The notes below the pieces were generated by a model. It made no database searches. It was not told where the DNA came from and saw nothing but the letters and a program-made list of their open reading frames with translations. From Mycolicibacterium smegmatis (GTDB lineage Bacteria; Actinomycetota; Actinomycetes; Mycobacteriales; Mycobacteriaceae): 32,000 nucleotides of DNA. The translations under genes and the position numbers were made by a program. The DNA is taken from contig NZ_LN831039.1 in the NCBI RefSeq assembly GCF_001457595.1, forward strand, positions 2,940,001-2,972,000. The letters are read 5' to 3'. Below are positions 722 through 11,891 of the stretch, in pieces; position 1 is the stretch's first letter, and each line of letters opens with the position of its first letter.

Positions 722-1933
722 ATGCTGTCTCAACTTCCGGCTGTGTCGGGGCTGCGGCGAGTATTCTCGCCTGGCATGGCCACCGGCGAGCTCAGCGGCG
801 CGCGGCGGTCGTTGGCCCGTCAGTCGGTGGTGATCGCACTTCTGGCGGCCGCGGTGGACGTCGGCATCTTCGTCTCGTCCGGAATCTTCCGGGTTGCGTT
901 CGCGTCGGCTTGCGCCATGACCGTCCTCTTGGTGTTGGCCGATCTGGCGTTGGCGCTGCCTGCCCACGCGACGGCCGTTGTGGCAATCGTCCAAGTGGTC
1001 ATCAGATTGGCGGTGTGCTGGCTGCTCAGTCGGCACGGCCTCGCCGCAGGCATAGGCGACGTCGGCATACTCGTCGCCGGCTACCGCGTGGGCGCCTGGT
1101 TACCCACCCGCGTCGCACTGCTCGTGGTGCCGGTGCTGGCGGCGGGTGTGTCCGGTGCGGCGGTGATCAACGGCGCTGGACGGACCTGGCGGGAGGTTGT
1201 GCTCATCGCCGTGTCGAATGCGGTGGTGCCGTGGCTGGTGGGTCGGTACACGGCAGCAGGCCGAGCATACGTCGACCAACTCGAACGGCATCAACAGCAG
1301 CAGCAGGCAGCGCTGGAACGCGCCTTGGCCGACGAACGGGAGGCCATCGCCCGCGATCTTCACGACGTCATCTCGCATCACGTGAGCGCCGTCGGCATCC
1401 ATGCCGGGGCGGCTCGGTTGGCGCTCGGCACAGATCCAGATGCGGTCGCCCGGTCACTGGCCGCCGTCGAGTCGGCCAGCCGCTCAGCCATGATGGACCT
1501 CCGTCGCCAACTCGACCTGCTGCACGGTGCCGACAGCGCGGGGGAGCGTCAGCCCGGCCTCGCCAACGTGTCCCACCTGGTCGATACCGTCCGCCAGGCC
1601 GGGTTGTCGGTGGAGCTCGAGCTTCCCGATGCCATGCCGGCGTTGTCGCAGTCCCTCGACGTCACGGTTTACCGCATCGTGCAGGAACTGCTGACGAATG
1701 CGCTGCGTCACGGTGACGGGACGGCGCGGCTGCAGGTGCGGCGCACAATCAACGAGGTGATCATCGACGCTTCGAATCCCATTGCCGACGGGAGATTCTC
1801 GGGGGAGTCACCGGGGCGCGGCCGGGCCGGTGTGCGGCGCCGCGCGGAACTCTTCGGGGGAACAATGCGAGATGGCAGCGACGACGGAGTGCGGTGGCGC
1901 ACCGTGGTGTCGATCCCTGTTCCGCCGTCATGA
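722..1933 (+). CDS. Two-component sensor histidine kinase (HisKA_3 / NarX-DesK type) with N-terminal multi-pass membrane region
   Basis: The 403-aa ORF has several hydrophobic helices in its first ~180 aa. An H-box follows (EREAIARDLHDVISHHVSAVGIHAGAAR), then HATPase_c-like motifs (ELLTNALRHGDG, GRGRAGVRRRAELFGG). Its stop overlaps the response regulator start (ATGA at 1930-1933). The start is uncertain: ATG 722 or ATG 776. Confidence 0.85.
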   Translation: MLSQLPAVSGLRRVFSPGMATGELSGARRSLARQSVVIALLAAAVDVGIFVSSGIFRVAFASACAMTVLLVLADLALALPAHATAVVAIVQVVIRLAVCWLLSRHGLAAGIGDVGILVAGYRVGAWLPTRVALLVVPVLAAGVSGAAVINGAGRTWREVVLIAVSNAVVPWLVGRYTAAGRAYVDQLERHQQQQQAALERALADEREAIARDLHDVISHHVSAVGIHAGAARLALGTDPDAVARSLAAVESASRSAMMDLRRQLDLLHGADSAGERQPGLANVSHLVDTVRQAGLSVELELPDAMPALSQSLDVTVYRIVQELLTNALRHGDGTARLQVRRTINEVIIDASNPIADGRFSGESPGRGRAGVRRRAELFGGTMRDGSDDGVRWRTVVSIPVPPS

Positions 1934-2598
1934 CCTCGCCGATCCGCACGCTCGTCGCCGACGACCATGCCATGTTCCGCGCGGGTCTGCGCGCGGTTCT
2001 GGACACCAGCCCGGACACCGTCTGCATCGCCGAAGTCGGCGACGGCCGAGCCACGGTCGAGGCGTGCCTGCAGCTGAGGCCCGACGTCGCGGTTCTGGAC
2101 GTCCGGATGCCCAAGCTGGACGGTGTCGCGGCCATCCGGCCGATAGTCGAGGCCGTCGACACTCGGGTTCTGATGCTCACCACCTACGACAGCGAGACCG
2201 TGTTGGCCAGTGCCCTGCAAGCCGGGGCGTCCGGTTTCCTGCTCAAGTCGTCACCACCCGAGGAACTCATCGGCGCGATCCGGATCGTCGCCCGTGGCGA
2301 CGCGGTCATCGATCCGGCGATGACGCGCCGACTGGTCAGGAGGGTCGCGGGCAATCTGGCGCCGGCGCCACTGCCAGACGAGGTGTCCACCCTGACCGCG
2401 CGCGAATTCGAGGTGCTGTTGTTGATGGCCGACGCCATGAGCAACGCCGAGATCGCCGCCGCGTTATTCGTGGGAGAAGAGACTGTCAAAACGCACGTAT
2501 CGCGCATCCTGGCCAAGCTCGGGGTGCGGGACCGGGTGCATGCAGTCGTCTACGCACATCGACATCGGCTGAACGAAAGAACAAGAGACAACGGCTGA
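1930..2598 (+). CDS. NarL/LuxR-family response regulator (REC + LuxR HTH)
   Basis: The sequence MTSPIRTLVADDHAMFRAGL...VAVLDVRMPKLDG is a receiver domain. LTAREFEVLLLMADAMSNAEIAAALFVGEETVKTHVSRILAKLGVRDR is a LuxR-type HTH. I chose the start at ATG 1930 (in frame within track ORF 1894..2598) because of its 4-nt overlap with the kinase stop. Confidence 0.9.
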   Translation: MTSPIRTLVADDHAMFRAGLRAVLDTSPDTVCIAEVGDGRATVEACLQLRPDVAVLDVRMPKLDGVAAIRPIVEAVDTRVLMLTTYDSETVLASALQAGASGFLLKSSPPEELIGAIRIVARGDAVIDPAMTRRLVRRVAGNLAPAPLPDEVSTLTAREFEVLLLMADAMSNAEIAAALFVGEETVKTHVSRILAKLGVRDRVHAVVYAHRHRLNERTRDNG

Positions 2599-2650
2599 CC
2601 GGATCGCGCAGCTCAGGCCCAACGCGAAACGTGTGGGGTCCGGTGTCGTC

Positions 2651-2982
2651 CTACGCGGACGGCAAGCTGTCCCCGTAGCGCTGATCCAGCGCGCCGTTGG
2701 ATCGCGGGGACTGGTGCAGTGGGCCGAGCCATCCACTGGCGGTGAGGCCTTCATCCCGCTGTCGCCGGGAACCGTCGATGTTCCACCGCCATCTGGTTGG
2801 AGACGGCGCGACGGTTGGGCGCGTTGCGGATTGAACACGGCAGTATCCGCTCGGGTGGTGCCGACGGCCTGGAGCAGGCGGTGTCCGACACGGTGGGCAC
2901 GCCGTACGTACGGGGCGGACTGCTCTGGGGCGATGTCGTAGTTGGTCAACGCGGCGTTGAGGATGCCGCAGGACTCCCGCAT
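2651..2982 (-). pseudogene. Degraded ORF of unknown function (apparent frame break near 2760-2850)
   Basis: From ATG 2982, MRESCGILNAALTNYDIAPEQSAPYVRRAHRVGHRLLQAVGTTRAD has strong GC3 bias that then fades. A second frame regains GC3 bias for ...GLTASGWLGPLHQSPRSNGALDQRYGDSLPSA* and ends at 2651. I recognised no family. Confidence 0.25.
2816..2836 (-). other. Possible degenerate copy of the tRNA-Val(GAC) 3' end (candidate distal att-site remnant)
   Basis: Forward tgggcgcgttgcggattgaac (2816-2836) compares with forward tggtgcgcgatactgggattgaac at the 3' end of tRNA-Val (11058-11081). They share the orientation, an exact 9-mer ggattgaac, and tgg/gcgcg blocks with a 3-nt length difference. This is a hand alignment only. 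Confidence 0.25.
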
Positions 2983-3062
2983 GGCGATGGTTACGCGTCG
3001 GAGTCAGAACGCGCCAGCGCATCGCGGATGCCGAGGACCGGCTGGCCACCGCCGAGGGCGAG

Positions 3063-3775
3063 GTGCGGGAGAAGGAGGCGCGGCTGCGGGAGGTGCAGGC
3101 CGACGCCGACGCCAAGGAGTCGGACCGCATCGCGGCCGAGAACGACCTCGCCGAGACGCAACGCGACCATGACAAGGCACGCGCGGAATTGGTTGAGACG
3201 CAGCACAAGCCGATTGGCAGCGGCAGCGGCACCGGCAAGAAGGGCGGCCACGACGGTCAGAGCTTCGCCAAGGACATGCTGTCGGGCGCGCTGGAGGCCC
3301 TGAGGTTTGACGGATCGGTGTTCTCCGACCTCAGCCAGTGGGGCATCTGGAAGTTGTTCACCGGGGGCTCGAACTACGCTGGCGGGCTGCTGAAGAACGC
3401 CTACGGTGGGCCGTCGAGGCTCAACCCGTACGGCCTCGCGGCGCTGCACTACGGCGGGTCACCAGCCGGCACCCAACACGGCCGCGGCCCGGGGTCGCCT
3501 GGTCGGGGCAATCAGGGCGACGGCGGCCTGGGTGGGTTCCAGCTGGGCGACCGCGGCGGTATGTCGAGTGTCGGCGACACCCTGACGGGTGCGCTGCCCC
3601 AGGTGTCGGACTTCTTGCCGTCACCGGCCACCAATGCGCCCAACGTGGACGCGTCCATCAACATCCACGGACCCGTTGGGTGTCGCCCAACGACCTGATG
3701 TCCCGTATCCATGCCGAACGCAACGACCGAGCTCGCACTGCGGGGTCGGGCCTCAAGGGTGTTGGGGGATTCTGA
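3063..3775 (+). pseudogene. N-terminally truncated, frameshifted coiled-coil / Gly-rich protein (phage structural-protein-like; family not assigned)
   Basis: The frame opens at 2961 with no start codon before GTG 3063. A charged coiled-coil stretch (EKEARLREVQADADAKESDRIAAENDLAETQRDHDKARAEL) is followed by a Gly-rich region. Frame 0 ends ...ASINIHGPVGCRPTT* at 3698. The -1 frame continues from about 3680 with good GC3 as VSPNDLMSRIHAERNDRARTAGSGLKGVGGF*, and its TGA (3773-3775) overlaps the next gene's ATG. Confidence 0.5.
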
Positions 3776-4134
3776 TGGCCAAGAAGCCGAACATCCCCTG
3801 CGCTAGTGGCTGTGGCAAGCTGCTTTGGCCCGGCCGCACCACGCTGCCGGTTGGCGTGGCCGCCTGCCGTTCCTGTTGGCGCCCAGCGAGCCGCGACACC
3901 GCCAAGGCCGCCCGCGACGCGCCGCTGCAACATTTGCGGGGTCACGGTGCTCAGCCCGGACCAGATGTGCCCCTCCACAAGGGACTGCGCCGCCTGGTGT
4001 GCCGGTGGTGCGGCAGCGAATACATCGGCTCCCGCGGCACCAAGTGCTGCAGCGATAGGTGTCGCCGACGAGGACAAGCCCACGCGATGCAGTCACGTCA
4101 ACGTTCGGTGCAGCCCACCGACGCTGGCAGGTGA
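3775..4134 (+). CDS. Small Cys-rich (zinc-ribbon-like) protein, 119 aa
   Basis: MAKKPNIPCASGCGKLLWPG...CRSCW...VCRWCGSEYIGSRGTKCCSDRCRRRGQAH contains four Cys pairs (CASGC, CRSC, CRWC, CCSDRC). GC3 is good. The ATG at 3775 overlaps the upstream TGA by 1 nt (TGATG). Confidence 0.6.
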   Translation: MAKKPNIPCASGCGKLLWPGRTTLPVGVAACRSCWRPASRDTAKAARDAPLQHLRGHGAQPGPDVPLHKGLRRLVCRWCGSEYIGSRGTKCCSDRCRRRGQAHAMQSRQRSVQPTDAGR

Positions 4135-4231
4135 CCCTTTGCCGTTTGCTCGGCGTTGACTAGTCTCACCCCGGTAGGCGTGTTGTTAGAGGGGGAACGG
4201 TCGTGGGGCCGGCAACAGCCGGGCGGGGAGT

Positions 4232-5404
4232 TTGCCAACCAGGTCGGAGATAGAAGGTTGGGATACATCGGAGCTTGAGAACGCGGCTTCAACCTGGCGT
4301 GCAGCGGCCGCCCAGTCTGAGCAGGTGTTTGACCAGCACCGACAGAACATCGCTGCACCTGGCGGCACCACGTGGGAAGGCGACGCCAAGGACGCGGCGC
4401 TCAACCGTGTGACGGCCGATGTGAGCGTTGTCCGGCATCAAGGTGACGTAGTGCGGGCCGCGGCCGACATTGCCGAGAGCGGCAGCGGCGATATCCAGGC
4501 GGCGCTTTCCAAAGTCCTGGACGCCATCGCTGCGGCAGAGGCCGACGGGTTCCGGGTCGGTGAAGACCTGTCGGTAACCGACACCAAGCGAGTGGACGTG
4601 TTCTCGATGGCGGCACGCCGGACGGCCCTATCAGAGCACGCTGAGGGCATTCGCTGGGCAGCAGAGCAGCTGGTGCAGACTGACACCCTGGTGGGTAAGC
4701 GGCTGGAGGCCAAAGCGACTGAGCTGCAAGGAATTCAGTTCGATGGCGAAGGTCAGTCGGATCACGTTGTACAGGCCGTGGACTACAGCACCATGCCGGA
4801 ACGGCCGCAGTTTCCGCTGCCCGAGAAGCCGTGGGACTACAACCTGGACCTGACGACCGATCTGAAAGTCGATGGCGGCAAAAGCGCAGGCGCGGGCATC
4901 ACCATCGATGACGTGTGGAAAGAACTCCACCGATGCTTTAATTGCAATTTCCCAAGGGGAGGCGCACCCAAGGACTTCCCGAAGGTTGGCGATGAGCTGC
5001 CTCTGGAAATCAAAATGGCTGGGGCCAAGCTGGCGAATTTCCCGGTGAGGGTCACTCAAGCCGAGAAATCTGGCTCGGAGATAAACATCGAATTCGAAAC
5101 CCTCCCCGGACATGTGGACGGCCCAGGTAGCACGATCCACTTCAGGTTCTTCGAGCAGGGCGGTGAGATACACCTCGGTATCAACGCGCACGTGACCGAT
5201 CCTGGCCCCGGCACTCAGCCATTCCCAGTTGGACCGGCGTTCAGGGCCGGATATACGGGCATAGCGCATCTGACTTGGCAGCCCTACATTGATCGCTTGG
5301 CCGATAACATCCAGCAGTCTCGTGGTGTAGTGCCCAACGTGGGGCCTCCGGTGGTGCCACCAGGATTACCGCCTATTGCCGTACCGAATACAGGTGGACG
5401 ATGA
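4232..5404 (+). CDS. WXG-hairpin (T7SS-signal-like) N-terminal domain protein with unassigned C-terminal domain; candidate polymorphic toxin
   Basis: 390 aa. The N-terminus MPTRSEIEGWDTSELENAASTWRAAAAQSEQVFDQHRQNIAAPGGTTWEGDAKDAALNRV has W48-E49-G50 between two predicted helices. A Pro-rich linker (MPERPQFPLPEKPWDY) follows, then a C-terminal module with CFNCNF and FETLPGHVDGPGSTIHFRFFEQGGEIHLGINAHV, then a Pro-rich tail. TTG 4232 is the only start codon in the open frame, which opens at 4178. A/T-ending and rare codons (ata, agg, tta) suggest foreign origin. Confidence 0.65.
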   Translation: MPTRSEIEGWDTSELENAASTWRAAAAQSEQVFDQHRQNIAAPGGTTWEGDAKDAALNRVTADVSVVRHQGDVVRAAADIAESGSGDIQAALSKVLDAIAAAEADGFRVGEDLSVTDTKRVDVFSMAARRTALSEHAEGIRWAAEQLVQTDTLVGKRLEAKATELQGIQFDGEGQSDHVVQAVDYSTMPERPQFPLPEKPWDYNLDLTTDLKVDGGKSAGAGITIDDVWKELHRCFNCNFPRGGAPKDFPKVGDELPLEIKMAGAKLANFPVRVTQAEKSGSEINIEFETLPGHVDGPGSTIHFRFFEQGGEIHLGINAHVTDPGPGTQPFPVGPAFRAGYTGIAHLTWQPYIDRLADNIQQSRGVVPNVGPPVVPPGLPPIAVPNTGGR

Positions 5405-5697
5405 AGCGAGCGTTGACAATTGCAGGTTGGCTGGTCCTCGGCATTGTGGCGGGGCTTGCCGTGTACGCGGTGCTCACGCTGATTCTGGGAGCCGCTGGCT
5501 TCTACTCGTTGGCGATGGGCACGGCGACGGTGCTGGGGTTCCTCAGTGCCGTCGTCGGCGCGGTGGTGATGTTGCGCCGACGACGGAGCCCCGACCGATA
5601 TGCGTTCTGGGTGGGGATGGTTCTGTTCCTTGGGGTTTGCTCGGTGCAGGTACTGGTTCTCAGCCCTCGCTTGGTCTGGCCGCTGAACCTCATGTAA
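5401..5697 (+). CDS. Small multi-pass membrane protein (98 aa); candidate immunity partner
   Basis: The ATG at 5401 overlaps the upstream stop (ATGA). There are three hydrophobic segments (LTIAGWLVLGIVAGLAVYAVLTLILGAAGF, ATVLGFLSAVVGAVVML, YAFWVGMVLFLGVCSVQVLVL) with an RRRRSPDR loop. I recognised no family. Confidence 0.6.
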   Translation: MKRALTIAGWLVLGIVAGLAVYAVLTLILGAAGFYSLAMGTATVLGFLSAVVGAVVMLRRRRSPDRYAFWVGMVLFLGVCSVQVLVLSPRLVWPLNLM

Positions 5698-5790: not shown

Positions 5791-5999
5791 TCCCTGAACA
5801 CTTTCTCTCTGCCCGGTCCCTGATCACTTTCGAGGAGTATGCCGACGGCAGCGACTATGAAGGCAGAACGGACCTCGGTAACACCCAGCCGGGCGACGGG
5901 ACGCGCTACAAGGGCCGCGGGCCTATCCAGGTGACCGGGCGGCACAACTACACGCAGATGAGCGAGGACCTCGGGGTTGACTTCGTGAACCATCCTTAG
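5791..5999 (+). pseudogene. Glycoside hydrolase family 19 (chitinase/phage-lysin-like) gene fragment, truncated at both ends
   Basis: My translation ...ITFEEYADGSDYEGRTDLGNTQPGDGTRYKGRGPIQVTGRHNYTQMSEDLGVDFVNHP* matches the conserved GH19 core pattern (YEGR.DLGNTQPGDG.R[YF]KGRG.IQ.TGR.NY). There is no start codon; the frame opens right after a TGA at 5788-5790. It ends at the TAG inside the CTTAG next to the IS. Confidence 0.7.
5995..5999. repeat. CTTAG target-site duplication copy 1 (left flank of IS copy A)
   Basis: This pentamer lies immediately outside the CCTCGATCC terminus at 6000. It is identical to the pentamers at 7661-7665 and 9324-9328. Confidence 0.7.
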
Positions 6000-7660
6000 C
6001 CTCGATCCACCGATGGAAAGCCTGGATAGGCGGGTGTCGATATAAGGAAAGTGCCTTCTGAGCTGCGATGATGAGTGTTCCTTACGCACTTATCGGCACA
6101 ACTTCGAAAGGCACTTCCGGTGAAAGTGTCGCACAACTTCATGGCTGCGTCTGCAGTGTTCGATGATGAGCATCTGGTGTCGTGCGCCGGCCTGGTGCCG
6201 GTGATGACCCTGGCCAGCCAGACCGGGCTATCGGACCTGATCGCGGACAAGGTCGAAATCGTTGAACCGCGGATCAAGTCCGGCTCGGCCAATCCGTCAC
6301 CGAAGCTGACGACAGTAATCGCCGGAATGTGCGCCGGCGCCGACAGCATCGACGACCTCGACATCGTGCGCTCCGGTGGAATGAAAGCCCTCTTTGGCGG
6401 CGTGTACGCGCCCTCGACCATCGGAACACTGTTGCGGGAGTTCACCTTCGGACACGCCCGACAACTGGAAGCAGTGCTGCGTGAGCATCTGGGCGGGCTC
6501 TGCGAGCGCGTCGCGTTGCTACCCGGCGCCGATACCCAAGCGTTCGTCGACATCGATTCACTGCTGCGCCCGGTCTACGGCCACGCCAAACAAGGAGCCT
6601 CCTACGGACACACCAAGATCGCCGGCAAGCAGATCCTGCGCAAAGGCCTCTCGCCGCTGATCACCACCATCAGCACCACCACGGGTGCCCCGATGATCAC
6701 CGGAGCCCGGCTGCGGGCGGGCAAGACCAACTCCGGCAAGGGCGCAGCCCGGATGATCGCCCAAGCAGTCACCACCGCCCGCGCCGCCGGTGTCAACGGG
6801 CAGATCCTGGTGCGCGGAGACTCGGCCTACGGCAACAGCACCGTGGTGAATGCCTGCCGACGCGCCGGTGCCCACTTCTCGCTGGTGCTGACCAAGACCC
6901 GCGCCGTCGCTGCGGCCATCGAGGCCATCAGCGATAACGCCTGGACCCCGGTCAACTACCCCGGCGCAGTGCGCGACCCCGACACCGGCGCCTGGATCTC
7001 CGATGCCGAAGTCGCCGAAACCACCTACACCGCTTTCAGTTCCACCAACACCCCGGTCACCGCTCGGTTGATCGTGCGCCGGGTCAAAGACGCCCGATAC
7101 CTCGATGCGCTGTTTCCGGTGTGGCGGTATCACCCCTTCTTCACCGATTCCGACGAACCCGTCGACGCCGCTGACATCACCCACCGCCGCCACGCCATCA
7201 TCGAAACCGTGTTCGCCGACCTGATCGACGGACCGTTGGCGCATATGCCCTCCGGGCGGTTCGGCGCGAACTCGGCCTGGGTCCTGTGCGCGGCGATCGC
7301 CCACAACCTGCTGCGCGCCGCCGGGGTGCTCGCCGGCGGTGCCCATGCCCTCGCGCGCGGAGCCACACTGCGCCGCAAGATCGTCAACATCCCGGCTCGA
7401 CTGGCTCGGCCCCAACGCCGACCCATCCTGCATCTACCCTCGCATTGGCCGTGGGCCCAGCAGTGGCTCACATTGTGGCGCAACACAATCGGCTACAGCC
7501 CGCCAACTGCTGCGACCCACTGACCACCGGACCCACAGGCCCCGACCCGAACATCACAGGAAAAGCTGGGCAGACCAGCGGCTACAGGCTGCCCACGACC
7601 TGGGCGCACGACAAAAATCAGCCCCAAACAACCTCAACAGGGTCGATCCACGGATCGAGG
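6000..7660 (+). mobile_element. IS1380-family-like insertion sequence, copy A (about 1.66 kb)
   Basis: The termini are CCTCGATCCACCGATGG (6000-) and the reverse complement of ...GGTCGATCCACGGATCGAGG (-7660), i.e. CCTCGATCCGTGGATCG. The first 9 nt form a perfect IR. The element carries a single 482-aa transposase ORF and is flanked by CTTAG on both sides. Confidence 0.85.
6075..7523 (+). CDS. IS1380-family-like DDE transposase (copy A)
   Basis: 482 aa. It shows the N-terminal pattern I associate with actinobacterial IS1380-family transposases (SAVFDDEHLVSCAGLVPVMTLASQTGL...GADSIDDLDIVRSGGM...YAPSTIGTLLREFTFGHARQLE). The start is uncertain: GTG 6075, or in-frame GTG 6120/6126. Confidence 0.85.
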   Translation: MFLTHLSAQLRKALPVKVSHNFMAASAVFDDEHLVSCAGLVPVMTLASQTGLSDLIADKVEIVEPRIKSGSANPSPKLTTVIAGMCAGADSIDDLDIVRSGGMKALFGGVYAPSTIGTLLREFTFGHARQLEAVLREHLGGLCERVALLPGADTQAFVDIDSLLRPVYGHAKQGASYGHTKIAGKQILRKGLSPLITTISTTTGAPMITGARLRAGKTNSGKGAARMIAQAVTTARAAGVNGQILVRGDSAYGNSTVVNACRRAGAHFSLVLTKTRAVAAAIEAISDNAWTPVNYPGAVRDPDTGAWISDAEVAETTYTAFSSTNTPVTARLIVRRVKDARYLDALFPVWRYHPFFTDSDEPVDAADITHRRHAIIETVFADLIDGPLAHMPSGRFGANSAWVLCAAIAHNLLRAAGVLAGGAHALARGATLRRKIVNIPARLARPQRRPILHLPSHWPWAQQWLTLWRNTIGYSPPTAATH

Positions 7661-7665: not shown

Positions 7666-9323
7666 CCTGAATCCGTGGAGCGGCCCTCCTTGAGGTGTCC
7701 GTGTGTGGTTTCTGCTGCGTTCGGTGTTGCGGGCATGCGGTAGTTGCTGGTCTGCCCAGCTTTTCCTGTGTGCTCCGGTTGGGCCTGTTCGGCGCGTTGG
7801 TCAGGTCGTTGCCGGTAGCGGTGGGCTGTATCCGATGGTGTTGCGCCACAACGTGAGCCAGTGCTCTGTCCAGGGCCAGTGCTCGGGGAGGTGCAGGATC
7901 GGTCGACGCTGGGGTCGGGCCAGACGGGCGGGAATGTTGACGATCTTGCGGCGCAGCGTCGCGCCGCGGGCAACCACGTGGGCACCTCCTGCGAGCACGC
8001 CGGCGGCGCGCAGCAGGTTGTGCGCGATCGCCGCGCACAACACCCACGCACTGTTGGCACCGAACTGTCCTGAGGGCATGTGGGCCAGGGGTCCGTCGAT
8101 CAGATCGGCGAAGACGGTTTCGATGATCGCGTGCTGGCGGTGGGTGATGTCAGCCTCGGCGGTCGGCAAGTCTGTGTTGGTGAAGAACGGGTGATACCGC
8201 CACACCGGGAACAGCGCGTCCCGAAATCTCGCGTCTTTGACTCGCCGCACCACCAACCGCGCGGTGAACCGATCTTTGGTAGAGGCGAAGGCGGTGTAGC
8301 TGACCTCGGCGACCTCGGCATCAGAAATCCAGTCACCGGTGTCGGGATCACGCACTGCACCGGGATAGTTGACCGGCTCCCAGGCCTGCTCGTCGATCGA
8401 ACTGATGGCCCGATCAACCGCGGTATTGCGGGTCATCACCACCGAGAAGTGCGCATTGTGGGCTCGGCAGGCGCCCACCACCGACCGGGTGCCGTAGGAC
8501 GAATCGCCACGCACCAGCAGTTGCCCGCGCACGCCGGCGGCGCGGGCGGTGGCGATGGCTTGGGCGACCATGCGGCCCGCACCCTTCCCGGAACTGGTCT
8601 TACCGGCGCGCAGCCGCATCCCGGCGATCACCGGCGCCGCTCCGGGGGTGCTGATCGTCGTCGCCAACGGGGAGAGCCCTTTACGCAGAACCTGCTTACC
8701 AGCGATCTTGGTATGCCCGTAGGAGGCACCCTGTTTGGCGTGGCCATAGACCGGGCGCAGCAGTGAGTCGATGTCGATGAACGCCCCCGTGTCGGATCCG
8801 GGCAGCAGGTCCACCCGCGCACAGAGTGCGGCCAGATGATGACGCAGGACCGACTCCAACTGCCGGGCGTGTCCGAAGGTGAACTCCCGCAACAAAGTAC
8901 CAACAGTTGACGGTGCATACACACCGCCAAAGAGTGTCTTCATGCCACCGGCGCGAACCAAGTCGAGGTCATCGATGCTGTCCGCGCCGACACACATGCC
9001 GGCGATCACCGTGGTCAGCTTCGGGGACGGATTCGCCGAGCCGGATTTGATCTTCGGTGCCGGAATGGAAATCTTGTCGGCCAACAACTTCGGTAGTCCG
9101 GTCTGGGTGGCCAGCGTCATTACCGGCACCAGACCGGCGCACGACACGAGATGGGCATCATCGAAGACCGCCGACGACACGGCGAACCTATGGGACACTT
9201 GCACCGGAAGTGCCTTTCGAAGTTGTGCCGATAAGTGCCTAGAGAACACTCATCATCACAGCTCAGAAGGCACTTTCCTCGTCACGACACCCTGCGACCA
9301 GCCAATTCATCGGTGGATCGAGG
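7666..9323 (-). mobile_element. IS1380-family-like insertion sequence, copy B (about 1.66 kb), inverted relative to copy A
   Basis: The outer terminus, read on the minus strand from 9323, is CCTCGATCCACCGATG and is identical to copy A's left end. The inner terminus is CCTGAATCCGTGGAGCG (7666-). The element is flanked by CTTAG at 7661-7665 and 9324-9328. Confidence 0.85.
7801..9249 (-). CDS. IS1380-family-like DDE transposase (copy B)
   Basis: 482 aa and collinear with copy A, but clearly diverged (roughly four of five residues identical by eye). There are no internal stops. Confidence 0.85.
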   Translation of the reverse strand: MFSRHLSAQLRKALPVQVSHRFAVSSAVFDDAHLVSCAGLVPVMTLATQTGLPKLLADKISIPAPKIKSGSANPSPKLTTVIAGMCVGADSIDDLDLVRAGGMKTLFGGVYAPSTVGTLLREFTFGHARQLESVLRHHLAALCARVDLLPGSDTGAFIDIDSLLRPVYGHAKQGASYGHTKIAGKQVLRKGLSPLATTISTPGAAPVIAGMRLRAGKTSSGKGAGRMVAQAIATARAAGVRGQLLVRGDSSYGTRSVVGACRAHNAHFSVVMTRNTAVDRAISSIDEQAWEPVNYPGAVRDPDTGDWISDAEVAEVSYTAFASTKDRFTARLVVRRVKDARFRDALFPVWRYHPFFTNTDLPTAEADITHRQHAIIETVFADLIDGPLAHMPSGQFGANSAWVLCAAIAHNLLRAAGVLAGGAHVVARGATLRRKIVNIPARLARPQRRPILHLPEHWPWTEHWLTLWRNTIGYSPPLPATT

Positions 9324-9328
9324 CTTAG
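9324..9328. repeat. CTTAG target-site duplication copy 3 (outer flank of IS copy B)
   Basis: This pentamer lies immediately outside ...GGATCGAGG, which ends at 9323. Confidence 0.7.
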
Positions 9329-11057: not shown

Positions 11058-11132
11058 TGGTGCGCGATACTGGGATTGAACCAGTGACCTCTTCCGTGTC
11101 AGGGAAGCGCTCTCCCGCTGAGCTAATCGCGC
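11058..11132 (-). tRNA. tRNA-Val (anticodon GAC), CCA encoded
   Basis: Hand-folded from the minus strand: GCGCGAT-TA-GCTC-AGCGGGA-GAGC-G-CTTCC-CTGACAC-GGAAG-AGGTC-ACTGG-TTCAATC-CCAGT-ATCGCGC-A-CCA. All four stems pair. Confidence 0.95.
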
Positions 11133-11144
11133 TGGTCGAACTGT

Positions 11145-11218
11145 TGGAGGTGGAGACGGGAATCGAACCCGTGTGCACGGCTTTGCAGGCCGTTGCCTCA
11201 CCACTCGGCCACTCCACC
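11145..11218 (-). tRNA. tRNA-Cys (anticodon GCA), CCA encoded
   Basis: The minus strand reads GGTGGAG...ACGGC-CTGCAAA-GCCGT...ACGGG-TTCGATT-CCCGT-CTCCACC-T-CCA. The acceptor, anticodon and T stems pair. Confidence 0.95.
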
Positions 11219-11246
11219 GCGGGGGTTGATGCCTTTCGCACCTTCG

Positions 11247-11319
11247 AGCGGATGACGGGATTCGAACCCGCGACCCTCACCTTGGCAAGGTGATGCGCTA
11301 CCAACTGCGCTACATCCGC
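11247..11319 (-). tRNA. tRNA-Gly (anticodon GCC), CCA not encoded
   Basis: The minus strand reads GCGGATG-TA-GCGC-AGTTGGTA-GCGC-A-TCACC-TTGCCAA-GGTGA-GGGTC-GCGGG-TTCGAAT-CCCGT-CATCCGC-T and is followed by CGA. Confidence 0.95.
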
Positions 11320-11390
11320 GCGCCACGGGCGAGATCGTCGCCCGTCGCGATGCAGAACATTAGTCGACGGAGGCTCAAAGGCACAAATCC

Positions 11391-11418
11391 GCATTACGAA
11401 CGGGGAACGGGCGGTCAA
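11391..11418 (-). promoter_or_regulatory. Candidate promoter for the Gly-Cys-Val tRNA operon
   Basis: The minus strand reads TTGACC (11418-11413), a 16-nt spacer, then TAATGC (11396-11391), about 70 nt upstream of the tRNA-Gly 5' end. This is a motif match only. Confidence 0.25.
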
Positions 11419-11569
11419 AAACCATGTTTCGTGGCAGGTCGGCGGCCCGTCTGTCGAGGTGGACCGGCGGGTTTCGGCAGCGGGCTCCCACATCTGCCGT
11501 GGTGTGACCTTGCCCACACGCGTCACACCCGTCCCACTGGTTACCCGCGCCGGCGCGAGTGAAACCTGC

Positions 11570-11715
11570 CCGGCCGATCGAGCGTGCGCTCAGGGCGGGC
11601 TGCGGGCCGAAAACCCGCCAAGGGTGCACGGTGGATTCGGGCACTGCGCGCCGGCCGATCGAGCGTGCGCTCAGGGCGAGAAATCGGGCCACATCCCGCC
11701 AGGGGCGCACGGTGG
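11570..11715. repeat. Two-copy tandem repeat (65-bp units, 81-bp period) in the inter-tRNA spacer
   Basis: The 28-bp core CCGGCCGATCGAGCGTGCGCTCAGGGCG is perfect at 11570-11597 and 11651-11678. The next 37 nt match at 25/37 by hand alignment and both copies end ...GCACGGTGG. Each unit holds the near-palindrome GAGCGTGCGCTC and a short hairpin (GCGGG..CCCGC in copy 1, CGGG..CCCG in copy 2). Confidence 0.8.
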
Positions 11716-11794
11716 GCAACACGAACGCGACAGGGGGCAAGATCGAAAACAGGGCCTCTGGGCAGGCGATTCCGGTTCTGCGGGCAAGGCGTGC

Positions 11795-11800
11795 TAGTCT
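11795..11800 (+). promoter_or_regulatory. Candidate -10 element (TAGTCT) for tRNA-Val(CAC)
   Basis: A TANNNT hexamer lies 16 nt upstream of the tRNA 5' end at 11817. There is no convincing -35. Confidence 0.3.
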
Positions 11801-11816
11801 TCCTCCTCGTTCCCAT

Positions 11817-11891
11817 GGTCTCGTAGCTCAGTGGGAGAGCGTCCGCCTCACACGCGGAAGGTCGCTGGTTCGAACCCAGCCGGGACCACCA
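11817..11891 (+). tRNA. tRNA-Val (anticodon CAC), CCA encoded
   Basis: GGTCTCG-TA-GCTC-AGTGGGA-GAGC-G-TCCGC-CTCACAC-GCGGA-AGGTC-GCTGG-TTCGAAC-CCAGC-CGGGACC-A-CCA. There is one G-U pair in the acceptor stem. Confidence 0.95.

Follow-up and report, generated by a model that had tools for sequence, protein, structure and literature searches.

A candidate ESX-type toxin and immunity gene pair with a predicted helix-grip payload, stranded in a degraded prophage of Mycolicibacterium smegmatis

Analysis of a 32,000-nucleotide stretch of Mycolicibacterium smegmatis DNA (contig NZ_LN831039.1, positions 2,940,001 to 2,972,000, hereafter the window) showed a pair of overlapping open reading frames (ORFs) that are probably the toxin and immunity genes of a polymorphic toxin cassette secreted by an ESX (type VIIa) system, the toxin carrying a predicted helix-grip payload that would act on a lipid-type target. 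An earlier note on this DNA had proposed a toxin in the style of the type VII secretion systems (T7SS) with its immunity gene downstream, and that proposal was strengthened by the shuffling of N- and C-terminal domains among relatives, by identity to prophage toxins and by a conserved partner gene. The features of the cassette, all on the plus strand, were as follows:

4232..5404, plus strand: predicted polymorphic toxin gene, 390 amino acids, TTG start and TGA stop (ORF list).
5401..5697, plus strand: candidate immunity gene, 98 amino acids, three hydrophobic segments (ORF list and sequence).
4232..4741, plus strand: predicted N-terminal helical T7SS-targeting domain, residues 1-170 (AlphaFold2 (AF2) model, Foldseek, sub-threshold Pfam matches).
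4373..4381, plus strand: W48-E49-G50 at the hairpin turn (sequence, conservation, AF2 model).
4742..4831, plus strand: variable Pro-rich linker, residues 171-200, the domain-swap boundary (ends of homologue alignments, low predicted local distance difference test (pLDDT) scores).
4832..5353, plus strand: C-terminal payload, residues 201-374, predicted helix-grip (START/Bet v 1/SRPBCC-like) fold (AF2, Foldseek).
4934..4969, plus strand: C235-F-N-C238-x-F-P-x-x-G-A-P246 motif (conservation in distant members).
5108..5131, plus strand: G293-H294-x-D296-G-x-G-S300 loop motif (conservation in distant members).
5354..5401, plus strand: predicted disordered Pro-rich C-terminal tail, residues 375-390 (pLDDT <50 at C-domain residues 190-205).

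The two ORFs form a pair through the overlap ATGA at 5401-5404, read directly from the sequence, and both ORFs, this overlap, the Pro-rich linker and the Pro-rich tail were found where they had been described before. The W48-E49-G50 motif sits within APGGTTWEGDAKDAALNRV, also written GGTTWEGDAKDAALNRV, and the linker sequence MPERPQFPLPEKPWDY covers residues 188-203. The tail is limited to the closest relatives and is absent or different in most of alignment A1. Four related loci (L001, L002, L009 and L010) retain the same ATGA overlap, and comparison with L001 and L002, at a synonymous divergence (dS) of 0.9-1.7, gave ratios of nonsynonymous to synonymous substitution (dN/dS) of 0.06-0.09 for the toxin and 0.21-0.26 for the partner. 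Both ORFs are under purifying selection and, because the overlap is also conserved in relatives, the pair is not a chance product of GC-rich DNA. The GC content was 0.61 for the toxin and 0.63 for the partner against 0.669 for the window, and GC at third codon positions was 0.68 and 0.79, respectively, against about 0.86 in the neighbouring ATP-binding cassette (ABC) transporter genes, in agreement with the atypical codon choice reported earlier. Between L001 and L002 the toxin genes had a dS of 0.42 and the adjacent immunity genes a dS of 1.43, which suggests recombination or separate histories of the two genes.

The N-terminal 185 residues are the portion that recurs across proteins with differing toxin ends. 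A whole-protein homologue search of 5.8 billion proteins gave 265 matches among the scored candidates; full-length relatives were 'hypothetical proteins' of Mycolicibacterium and Mycobacterium (44-98% identity), and for most matches the alignment ended after the first 44-54% of the query (identity about 60-74%), these proteins having other C-termini. The C-domains behind the N-domain in these homologues included PF14410 (HNH/EndoVII), PF18431 (RNase A-like) and PF15644 (glutamine deamidase), together with PF13930, PF18664, PF21814 and PF12671, so that the survey for one N-domain fused to different C-domains returned at least seven Pfam toxin domains overall. Several of the homologues are named 'WXG100 family type VII secretion target' at NCBI. 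Among phage records the N-domain matched Dori gp88 and Mao1 gp92, and over residues 1-172 it was 50.6-51.4% identical to genes annotated as 'polymorphic toxin protein' in M. abscessus prophages. One of these, gp117 of prophiGD43A-1 (N-domain identity 50.6%), has an 'ESX complex protein' gene ahead of it and a small gene after it. Dori gp88, whose match reached residue 236, was considered as a carrier of the payload and was rejected at an hhalign probability of 0.2% against the C-domain profile.

The AF2 model of the N-domain, built on a 35-sequence alignment, had a pLDDT of 93 and a predicted template modelling (pTM) score of 0.82, and contained a helix at residues 13-41, the WEG turn, a helix at 51-104, a short beta-hairpin and a helix at 123-166, with low pLDDT at its end; the separate model of the C-domain had low pLDDT at its start. 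The two-helix hairpin with WEG at its turn, first read from the translation, thus reappeared in the model. G50 was invariant and W48 at least 90% conserved in alignments A1 and A3. The top Foldseek matches of the N-domain include the ESX substrates PPE15, EspB, PPE4 and PPE41. PDB chains were also searched by sequence, once from the whole protein and once from a profile of the N-domain, and nothing meaningful was returned.

Linkage to ESX genes was seen in related loci. The cassette adjoins eccA1 and eccB in M. riyadhense (L007 and L008), with a PF10824 EspC-family gene upstream, and eccB and a C40 peptidase gene lie beside it on a plasmid of M. rufum (L017; NZ_CP092428.2, 171033-176521). A helper gene of the WXG100/EspC type, encoding 93-104 amino acids, abuts the toxin start in L001 (an intact three-gene cassette of Mycobacterium sp. 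DL440), L002, L005/L006, L007 and L009. The L017 plasmid is mobilizable (MOBF) and encodes a PPE-type payload protein and a 97-amino-acid immunity homologue; the toxin-immunity pair therefore travels on a mobilizable plasmid.

The effector domain, which the earlier note could not assign to any named toxin family, proved placeable by its fold (helix-grip, START-like). The AF2 model of the payload (pLDDT 83.6, pTM 0.77) comprised one strand, a pair of short helices, an antiparallel sheet and, at the C-terminus, a long helix, and Foldseek matched it in the PDB with a probability of 1.00, E values of 1e-5 to 4e-4 and template modelling (TM) scores of 0.45-0.65 to PYL receptors, AHSA1-like proteins and polyketide cyclases. 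There were 97 PDB matches at E <=0.001, with TM scores normalised to the target of 0.35-0.65, and all 50 of the 50 matches listed were recognisable helix-grip proteins or uncharacterised/structural-genomics entries. The model therefore assigns the payload confidently to the START/Bet v 1 helix-grip fold. By sequence, no family scored above cut-off in the Pfam and NCBIfam scans of the C-domain, and identity to solved superfamily members was 8-16%.

Alignment A2 covered the C-terminal residues 186-390 in 36 sequences with 52-90% identity to the window protein. The invariant blocks of the payload family included ELxRCFNCNFP..GAP, TLPGHxDG and WQPYI. The CFNCxFPxxGAP motif was invariant in alignments A1 and A2, and its Cys pair stands at the junction of the two short helices; in the payload model the GHxDGxGS motif falls in the loop that joins strand 98-105 to strand 116-124. 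Residues kept in at least 90% of 86 distant members were C235, F236, N237, C238, F240, P241, G244, A245, P246, P250, L258, H294, D296, G299, S300 and F304, with H294, D296 and S300 conserved at 97%. The superfamily-wide motifs are CFNCxFPxxGAP and GHxDGxGS.

The 98-amino-acid partner has hydrophobic stretches at about residues 3-60, read as two segments, and at 67-93, with a basic RRRR loop between them, which agrees with the three hydrophobic segments counted earlier. A homologue of 97-103 amino acids lies directly downstream in 10 of the 10 mycobacterial loci examined (window, L001, L002, L003, L004, L005, L007, L009, L010 and L017), most of which came from exact-protein look-ups, a genome-contig scan with a single C-domain sequence having given two loci. 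The partner starts at the ATGA overlap (window, L001, L002, L009 and L010) or after a gap of <=95 nt (the others), and a basic loop precedes the last hydrophobic segment in every homologue. The L017 partner scored 72.8 bits against a hidden Markov model (HMM) built from the other partners, and from their sequences the partners across the 10 loci are judged homologous. Identity to the window partner was 24-67%, and 96% in L010, a faster divergence than that of the payload (about 55-90% identity). The partner tracks the C-domain whichever N-domain is attached, and in the two phage cassettes inspected the same N-domain type with other payloads was accompanied by soluble, unrelated partners; the downstream partner is thus conserved in all 10 loci and co-varies with the C-domain. 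No Pfam or NCBIfam family was above threshold for the partner, and PHROGs gave a non-significant match only.

The partner ORF is uncalled in the NCBI annotation of L001 (7194-7490) and L002 (6612-6917), and so is the ORF at 5105-5554 of L012. A 67% identical partner homologue from M. porcinum, P0285, bears the NCBI name 'ABC transporter ATP-binding protein', which is probably a misannotation. The 160-amino-acid protein P0152 appears to be an in-frame fusion of the payload end (...WQPYV) with the last two hydrophobic segments of an immunity protein and, judged from its sequence, is probably a deletion remnant that illustrates cassette decay.

Such a partner raises the possibility that the cassette is the same and the payload is a channel-forming or membrane-depolarising toxin like Oep23, the partner blocking its insertion or oligomerisation in the bilayer as do the multi-pass immunities of pore-forming colicins and of TspA/EsxX; this is considered unlikely. 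Fully membrane-embedded immunity proteins are typical of pore-forming toxins, and the immunity candidate is nearly all membrane-embedded, with no soluble domain that could plug an active site. The payload family also has a weak likeness to DUF1990 (PF09348), seen in 16 of 36 members (best E 0.0067), in a Nocardia member (E 0.023), in P0148 (15.2 bits) and in the window protein (12.6 bits, E 0.14), but every match was below the 23-bit cut-off. The one characterised DUF1990 protein, Oep23 of the chloroplast, is a cation-selective channel of 466 pS (picosiemens) after reconstitution, although its authors caution that the refolded protein is maybe non-native (PMC4331141). The payload itself has no hydrophobic segment (the highest 19-residue Kyte-Doolittle mean is 1.04, in the Pro-rich tail) and no glycine zipper in its domain, and the residues kept across the superfamily are polar (N, H, D, S and two C), a pattern seen more often in catalytic or ligand sites. 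Because of this conserved polar cluster (N237, H294, D296 and S300) and the lack of a hydrophobic segment, specific binding or catalysis is favoured over a pore, and the reading of a toxin with a lipid-type target is retained.

When 1.84 billion cluster representatives were searched exhaustively with an HMMER profile, 265 proteins of the payload family were found at E <=0.001, 150 of them at E <=1e-10. Named genera were Mycobacterium, Nocardia, Tsukamurella and Microbacterium, plasmid-borne copies were found in Mycolicibacterium, M. avium, Tsukamurella and Curtobacterium, and none of the 50,697 phage records searched gave a match to the family, even with the threshold at E = 1. The N-domains ahead of the payload included DUF4226 (PF10774) and WXG100 plus EspC (PF06013 plus PF10824); a 'PPE domain-containing' protein on the M. 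rufum plasmid also bears it, and in a protein of M. paraffinicum it follows an unrelated N-terminal region. Elsewhere the payload was found at the extreme C-terminus of an RHS repeats/YD-shell protein (P0267), joined to Pretoxin-HINT (PT-HINT) in P0242 (884 amino acids; L013 3001-5655), where it is internal at residues 447-604, and fused to LGFP repeats (P0160 and P0214), to five PG_binding_1 repeats plus NlpC/P60 (P0181) and to CHAP (P0219). A Sec-like leader was present, by a crude test, in 47 of 83 distant full-length members. The payload is a mobile module that occurs behind at least four T7SS-type N-domains, RHS, PT-HINT and Sec-like leaders. In P0242 a further region with an HExxH-like motif (VHEVHHAQH) comes after the payload, the gene directly upstream encodes an NlpC/P60 protein, and no small membrane gene was found downstream in L013. 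PHROGs gave no match for the toxin, nor did PADLOC, so a known phage-defence system is without support.

These fusions also bear on whether the pair is a weapon at all. As the main conceptual rival, the protein could be an ESX-secreted carrier or sensor of a hydrophobic ligand (lipid, cofactor or siderophore-like), with the partner as its docking or uptake protein. The helix-grip fold is best known for ligand carriage (PMC13525633), many relatives consist of this one domain in a simple secreted protein, conservation of the payload is strong, and neither PADLOC nor toxin-family matches were obtained. Yet the payload ends an RHS/YD-shell protein and follows PT-HINT, both hallmarks of polymorphic toxins, and the N-domain elsewhere bears nucleases, deamidases and RNases; because of these fusions and of the toxins that share the N-domain, a carrier role is disfavoured and is regarded as improbable, even more so than a channel. 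The translational coupling and faster divergence of the partner fit an immunity protein, and the mobile location and atypical GC also speak against a carrier.

For the toxin-immunity cassette, we infer a scheme that runs from ESX export to the mode of immunity. The three-helix N-domain, with WEG at its first hairpin turn, would be the secretion-targeting module and in intact cassettes would pair with a helper of about 100 amino acids (WXG100/EspC/Tap) encoded just upstream. The Pro-rich linker would connect it to the helix-grip payload of about 175 amino acids, which would be toxic through an extracytoplasmic action on a target, hydrophobic or linked to lipid, that lies in or at the cytoplasmic membrane of a competitor mycobacterium. 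The payload may sequester this target or may modify it chemically through the N237/H294/D296/S300 cluster and the C235/C238 pair, and the 98-amino-acid protein would shield the producer and its kin from within the membrane. The extracytoplasmic site is suggested by the Sec-like leaders, the cell-wall-binding fusions, the conserved Cys pair and the membrane-embedded immunity candidate, and the hydrophobic or lipid-linked nature of the target by the helix-grip fold. An envelope or membrane target had been put forward before, and the leaders and cell-wall-binding fusions of the relatives lend it indirect support.

A wider reading is offered tentatively, as a possibility well short of probable: the payload may found an Actinobacteria-wide group of secreted helix-grip toxins, delivered by ESX/T7SS, RHS or Sec routes, that capture or enzymatically alter an essential membrane lipid or lipid-linked envelope precursor from the outer side of the cytoplasmic membrane and are neutralised within the membrane by dedicated proteins of about 100 amino acids with three hydrophobic segments. 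Example targets, equally tentative, would be a polyprenyl-phosphate carrier or menaquinone, and the mechanism would then be new for antibacterial effectors.

Several results weigh against the interpretation as an ESX-secreted toxin with its immunity protein. The N-domain did not reach the cut-off of Pfam WXG100 (PF06013; 20.0 bits against 27.3, E 8e-4) or Pfam PPE (PF00823; 16.9 bits against 26, E 7e-3), and no LXG family matched at E <=10 in Pfam scans of the whole protein and of residues 1-185. The score against NCBIfam TIGR03930 was 18.5 bits against a cut-off of 44.85, and among 35 N-domain homologues at E <0.01 there were matches to PPE in 13 (best E 9.5e-5) and to WXG100 in 3. Of the WXG100/LXG-like N-terminus claimed earlier, the WXG-type helical character stands, while membership in WXG100 or LXG does not. 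Because the WXG100, TIGR03930 and PPE scores are sub-threshold and LXG is unmatched, the N-domain is better described as a helical T7SS domain of the PEST/Eat type, after the mycobacterial cassettes compared below, and not as a Pfam WXG100 or LXG member. Its Foldseek E values were weak (0.04-0.4), with BAR-like helical bundles interleaved among the matches.

The remaining adverse results concern the payload, the partners and the helper. The payload is strongly conserved, with a proportion of nonsynonymous differences (pN) of about 0.09, a conservation that exceeds that of many rapidly diversifying toxins, and the START-fold proteins PasT/RatA and Rv0910 were once taken for toxins and later reinterpreted as lipid or cofactor carriers (PMC13525633). 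In the RHS locus L014 a called gene of 104 amino acids with three hydrophobic segments lies 24 nt after the payload gene, and in the Microbacterium locus L012, where the payload has a Sec-like leader, an uncalled hydrophobic ORF of 149 amino acids, apparently multi-pass, lies 19 nt downstream; both parallel the mycobacterial arrangement and speak for it, but neither showed detectable homology to the mycobacterial partner (HMM, shuffled controls), so that they are cited as architectural parallels only. The helper gene is absent from the whole window (tblastn with six helpers, nothing below E 0.06) and is not evident upstream in L010 or L004.

Adverse as well is the state of the window copy, in which the ancestral start is frameshifted. 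L010 is a 98%-identical relative whose toxin ORF (8001..9203) begins MGSATAGVGSLPTRS. When window 4131-4270 was aligned with L010 7901-8040, the window proved to lack 1 bp of the G-run near 4221-4223. This throws the GTG at 4203 out of frame and leaves only the TTG at 4232, which has GGAG 2 nt ahead of it. The segment affected is:

4203..4231, plus strand: what is left of the ancestral 5' end (its GTG, at 4203, serves as start codon in L010 and is out of frame here).

No promoter-like site was found upstream in a scan for sigma-70 promoters and terminators, the consensus of which suits mycobacteria poorly. Because the helper and the original start are lost, the window copy is possibly poorly expressed, unexported or reliant on a helper elsewhere.

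Carried further, this would make the cassette a dead relic, with a toxin no longer translated or exported here and only the immunity gene possibly of consequence, as an orphan immunity. This is a possibility to be taken seriously, although it is not the expected one. To the 1-bp deletion that costs the GTG start, the helper found nowhere in the window and the unfound promoter-like site may be added the tape-measure pseudogene, the IS1380 insertions and fusions such as P0152, which show decay within the payload family. Against this, all 390 of 390 codons are intact, with no disabling change downstream of the start and a proportion of synonymous differences (pS) of 0.049 against a pN of 0.009 in comparison with the L010 toxin. 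The in-frame TTG with its GGAG remains, L010 and L004 keep full-length genes though no helper is evident upstream of them, and a consensus promoter scan is unsuited to mycobacterial promoters.

The toxin-immunity cassette, whichever its activity in this copy, is stranded in a degraded prophage in a Mycolicibacterium-like genome, and the decayed mobile element described earlier is recognisable from the tape-measure fragment upstream and the two IS1380 copies and transfer RNA (tRNA) cluster downstream. The surrounding features were:

3063..3698, plus strand: C-terminal phage tape-measure fragment (phrog_10780, E 5.9e-13), end frameshifted.
5995..7660, plus strand: IS1380-family insertion sequence (IS) element, transposase 6075..7523 (NF033539 IS1380, E 2.5e-99).
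7700..9328, minus strand: second, divergent IS1380-family element, transposase 7801..9249 (Pfam DDE_Tnp_1_4, E 2.4e-27).
11058..11891: tRNA cluster, minus-strand Val(gac), Cys(gca) and Gly(gcc) and plus-strand Val(cac) (ARAGORN).

The last 30 or so codons of the tape-measure fragment are shifted relative to L010, which reads through to ...GPVGVSPNDLMSRIH...; the window ORF ends ...GPVGCRPTT, and the ORF at 3338..3775 carries the ending ...VSPNDLMSRIHAE.... The first IS1380 element begins about 300 nt past the cassette and is a recent insertion, since it is absent from the otherwise 96-99% identical L010, in which window 6008 is joined to 7661. The two copies are inverted, tail to tail, with arms (6032-7553 and 7771-9292) that are 78% complementary and a terminal inverted repeat at 5995-6025 and 9298-9328. 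The tRNA cluster lies about 5.4 kb downstream of the cassette, or about 2 kb without the IS copies, and is plausibly the former prophage attachment region; no integrase or attachment (att) repeat was identified in the window, though no search aimed at these was made. The stretch at 794-3559 is extra relative to L010, with a clean junction, and holds the upstream part of the tape-measure fragment as well as an ORF (722..1933) that matches HisKA_3 and, weakly, HATPase_c. Upstream of the toxin, after the tape-measure fragment, a small Cys-rich ORF at about 3776-4009, inside ORF 3589..4134 (MAKKPNIPCASGCGKLLWPG...CRSCW), is called as a 77-amino-acid gene in L010 (7572..7805) and may encode a zinc-ribbon protein. 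A plasmid origin of the window was considered and rejected, as DNA-level matches to plasmid records were confined to the IS1380 copies.

Cassettes of this class (PEST/Eat) have been published before. Newly described are the payload family, its fold and motifs, the paired small membrane protein and three delivery routes (T7SS-type, RHS and probably Sec). It is only recently that ESX toxin cassettes have been tied to killing among mycobacteria, and roughly half of their payloads lack a predicted function (PMC13444075). One such payload now has a predicted fold, two diagnostic motifs, at least 265 cluster representatives across Actinobacteria and a paired membrane protein, and these features together suggest that the target is of a lipid type and lies in the mycobacterial envelope. 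If this target is an essential envelope lipid or carrier, the toxin would mark a vulnerable step in the envelope, itself a major target of drugs, and antibacterial effectors would gain a new class of activity. The family is invisible to standard annotation because its immunity ORF is uncalled in at least three NCBI genomes and a homologue is apparently misnamed in a fourth.

Among known systems, in the PEST cassettes (phage-encoded ESX-secreted toxins) of Mycobacterium prophages a polymorphic toxin is joined by a WXG100 helper and an immunity protein; the cassettes occupy the ends of prophages, and lysogens express them (Dedrick et al. 2021, PMC8092301; mSystems 2023, PMC10654092). They adjoin att junctions (PMC8092301), and for two of them toxicity in M. 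smegmatis, relieved by the immunity gene, has been demonstrated (PMC10654092). The window cassette resembles them in its WXG-type helical N-domain, linker and variable C-terminal toxin domain, in the immunity gene directly downstream that co-varies with the toxin domain, and possibly in a position at a prophage edge near an att/tRNA region. It differs in that the small WXG100 helper is missing and the prophage is degraded, that its payload is absent from the phage records searched, and that its partner is a multi-pass membrane protein, whereas the two inspected phage immunities are soluble and lipoprotein immunities are described in PMC8092301.

The Eat loci comprise TapA1/A2, EatA and EatI, and EatA kills mycobacteria in an ESX-4-dependent manner; for 47% of the payloads of Eat-like loci no function is predicted, and those Eat-like toxins that are expected to act outside the cell come with transmembrane or lipoprotein immunities (Nat Commun 2026, PMC13444075). 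The likeness, in helper or helpers, a toxin with a helical N-domain and an immunity gene, is one of locus logic. The EatA payload is a GH183 endo-D-arabinanase and EatI a secreted lipoprotein inhibitor, whereas the window has a predicted helix-grip payload and a membrane-embedded partner. The LXG toxins of the Firmicute T7SSb (TelC/TipC, TspA/TsaI and EsxX) share the helical N-domain, the envelope-acting C-terminal toxin and the downstream membrane-associated immunity, but the window toxin has no LXG Pfam match and would belong with the ESX/T7SSa subtype, and the folds are unrelated: TelC is of the lipocone superfamily, and TspA and EsxX are helical or glycine-zipper depolarisers.

The payload is like the START/Bet v 1/SRPBCC superfamily in predicted fold, in its Foldseek probability of 1.00 and in its weak DUF1990 (Oep23) matches, and differs from it in having its own motifs, in its predicted secretion and in sitting in conflict-system architectures. 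Secreted or T7SS-linked START toxins are unmentioned in a 2026 review of bacterial START proteins (PMC13525633). Cystatin-lipoprotein polymorphic toxins with a 'START-domain-like helix-grip' toxin domain and a predicted lipid target have been described by Burroughs et al. 2025 (eLife, PMC12419801). Both systems have a C-terminal helix-grip payload with a dedicated immunity, both are computational predictions and they are compared here by description only; a lipobox and a cystatin-like N-domain are found there, a T7SS domain here. A single sentence of that paper is the nearest precedent for the payload.

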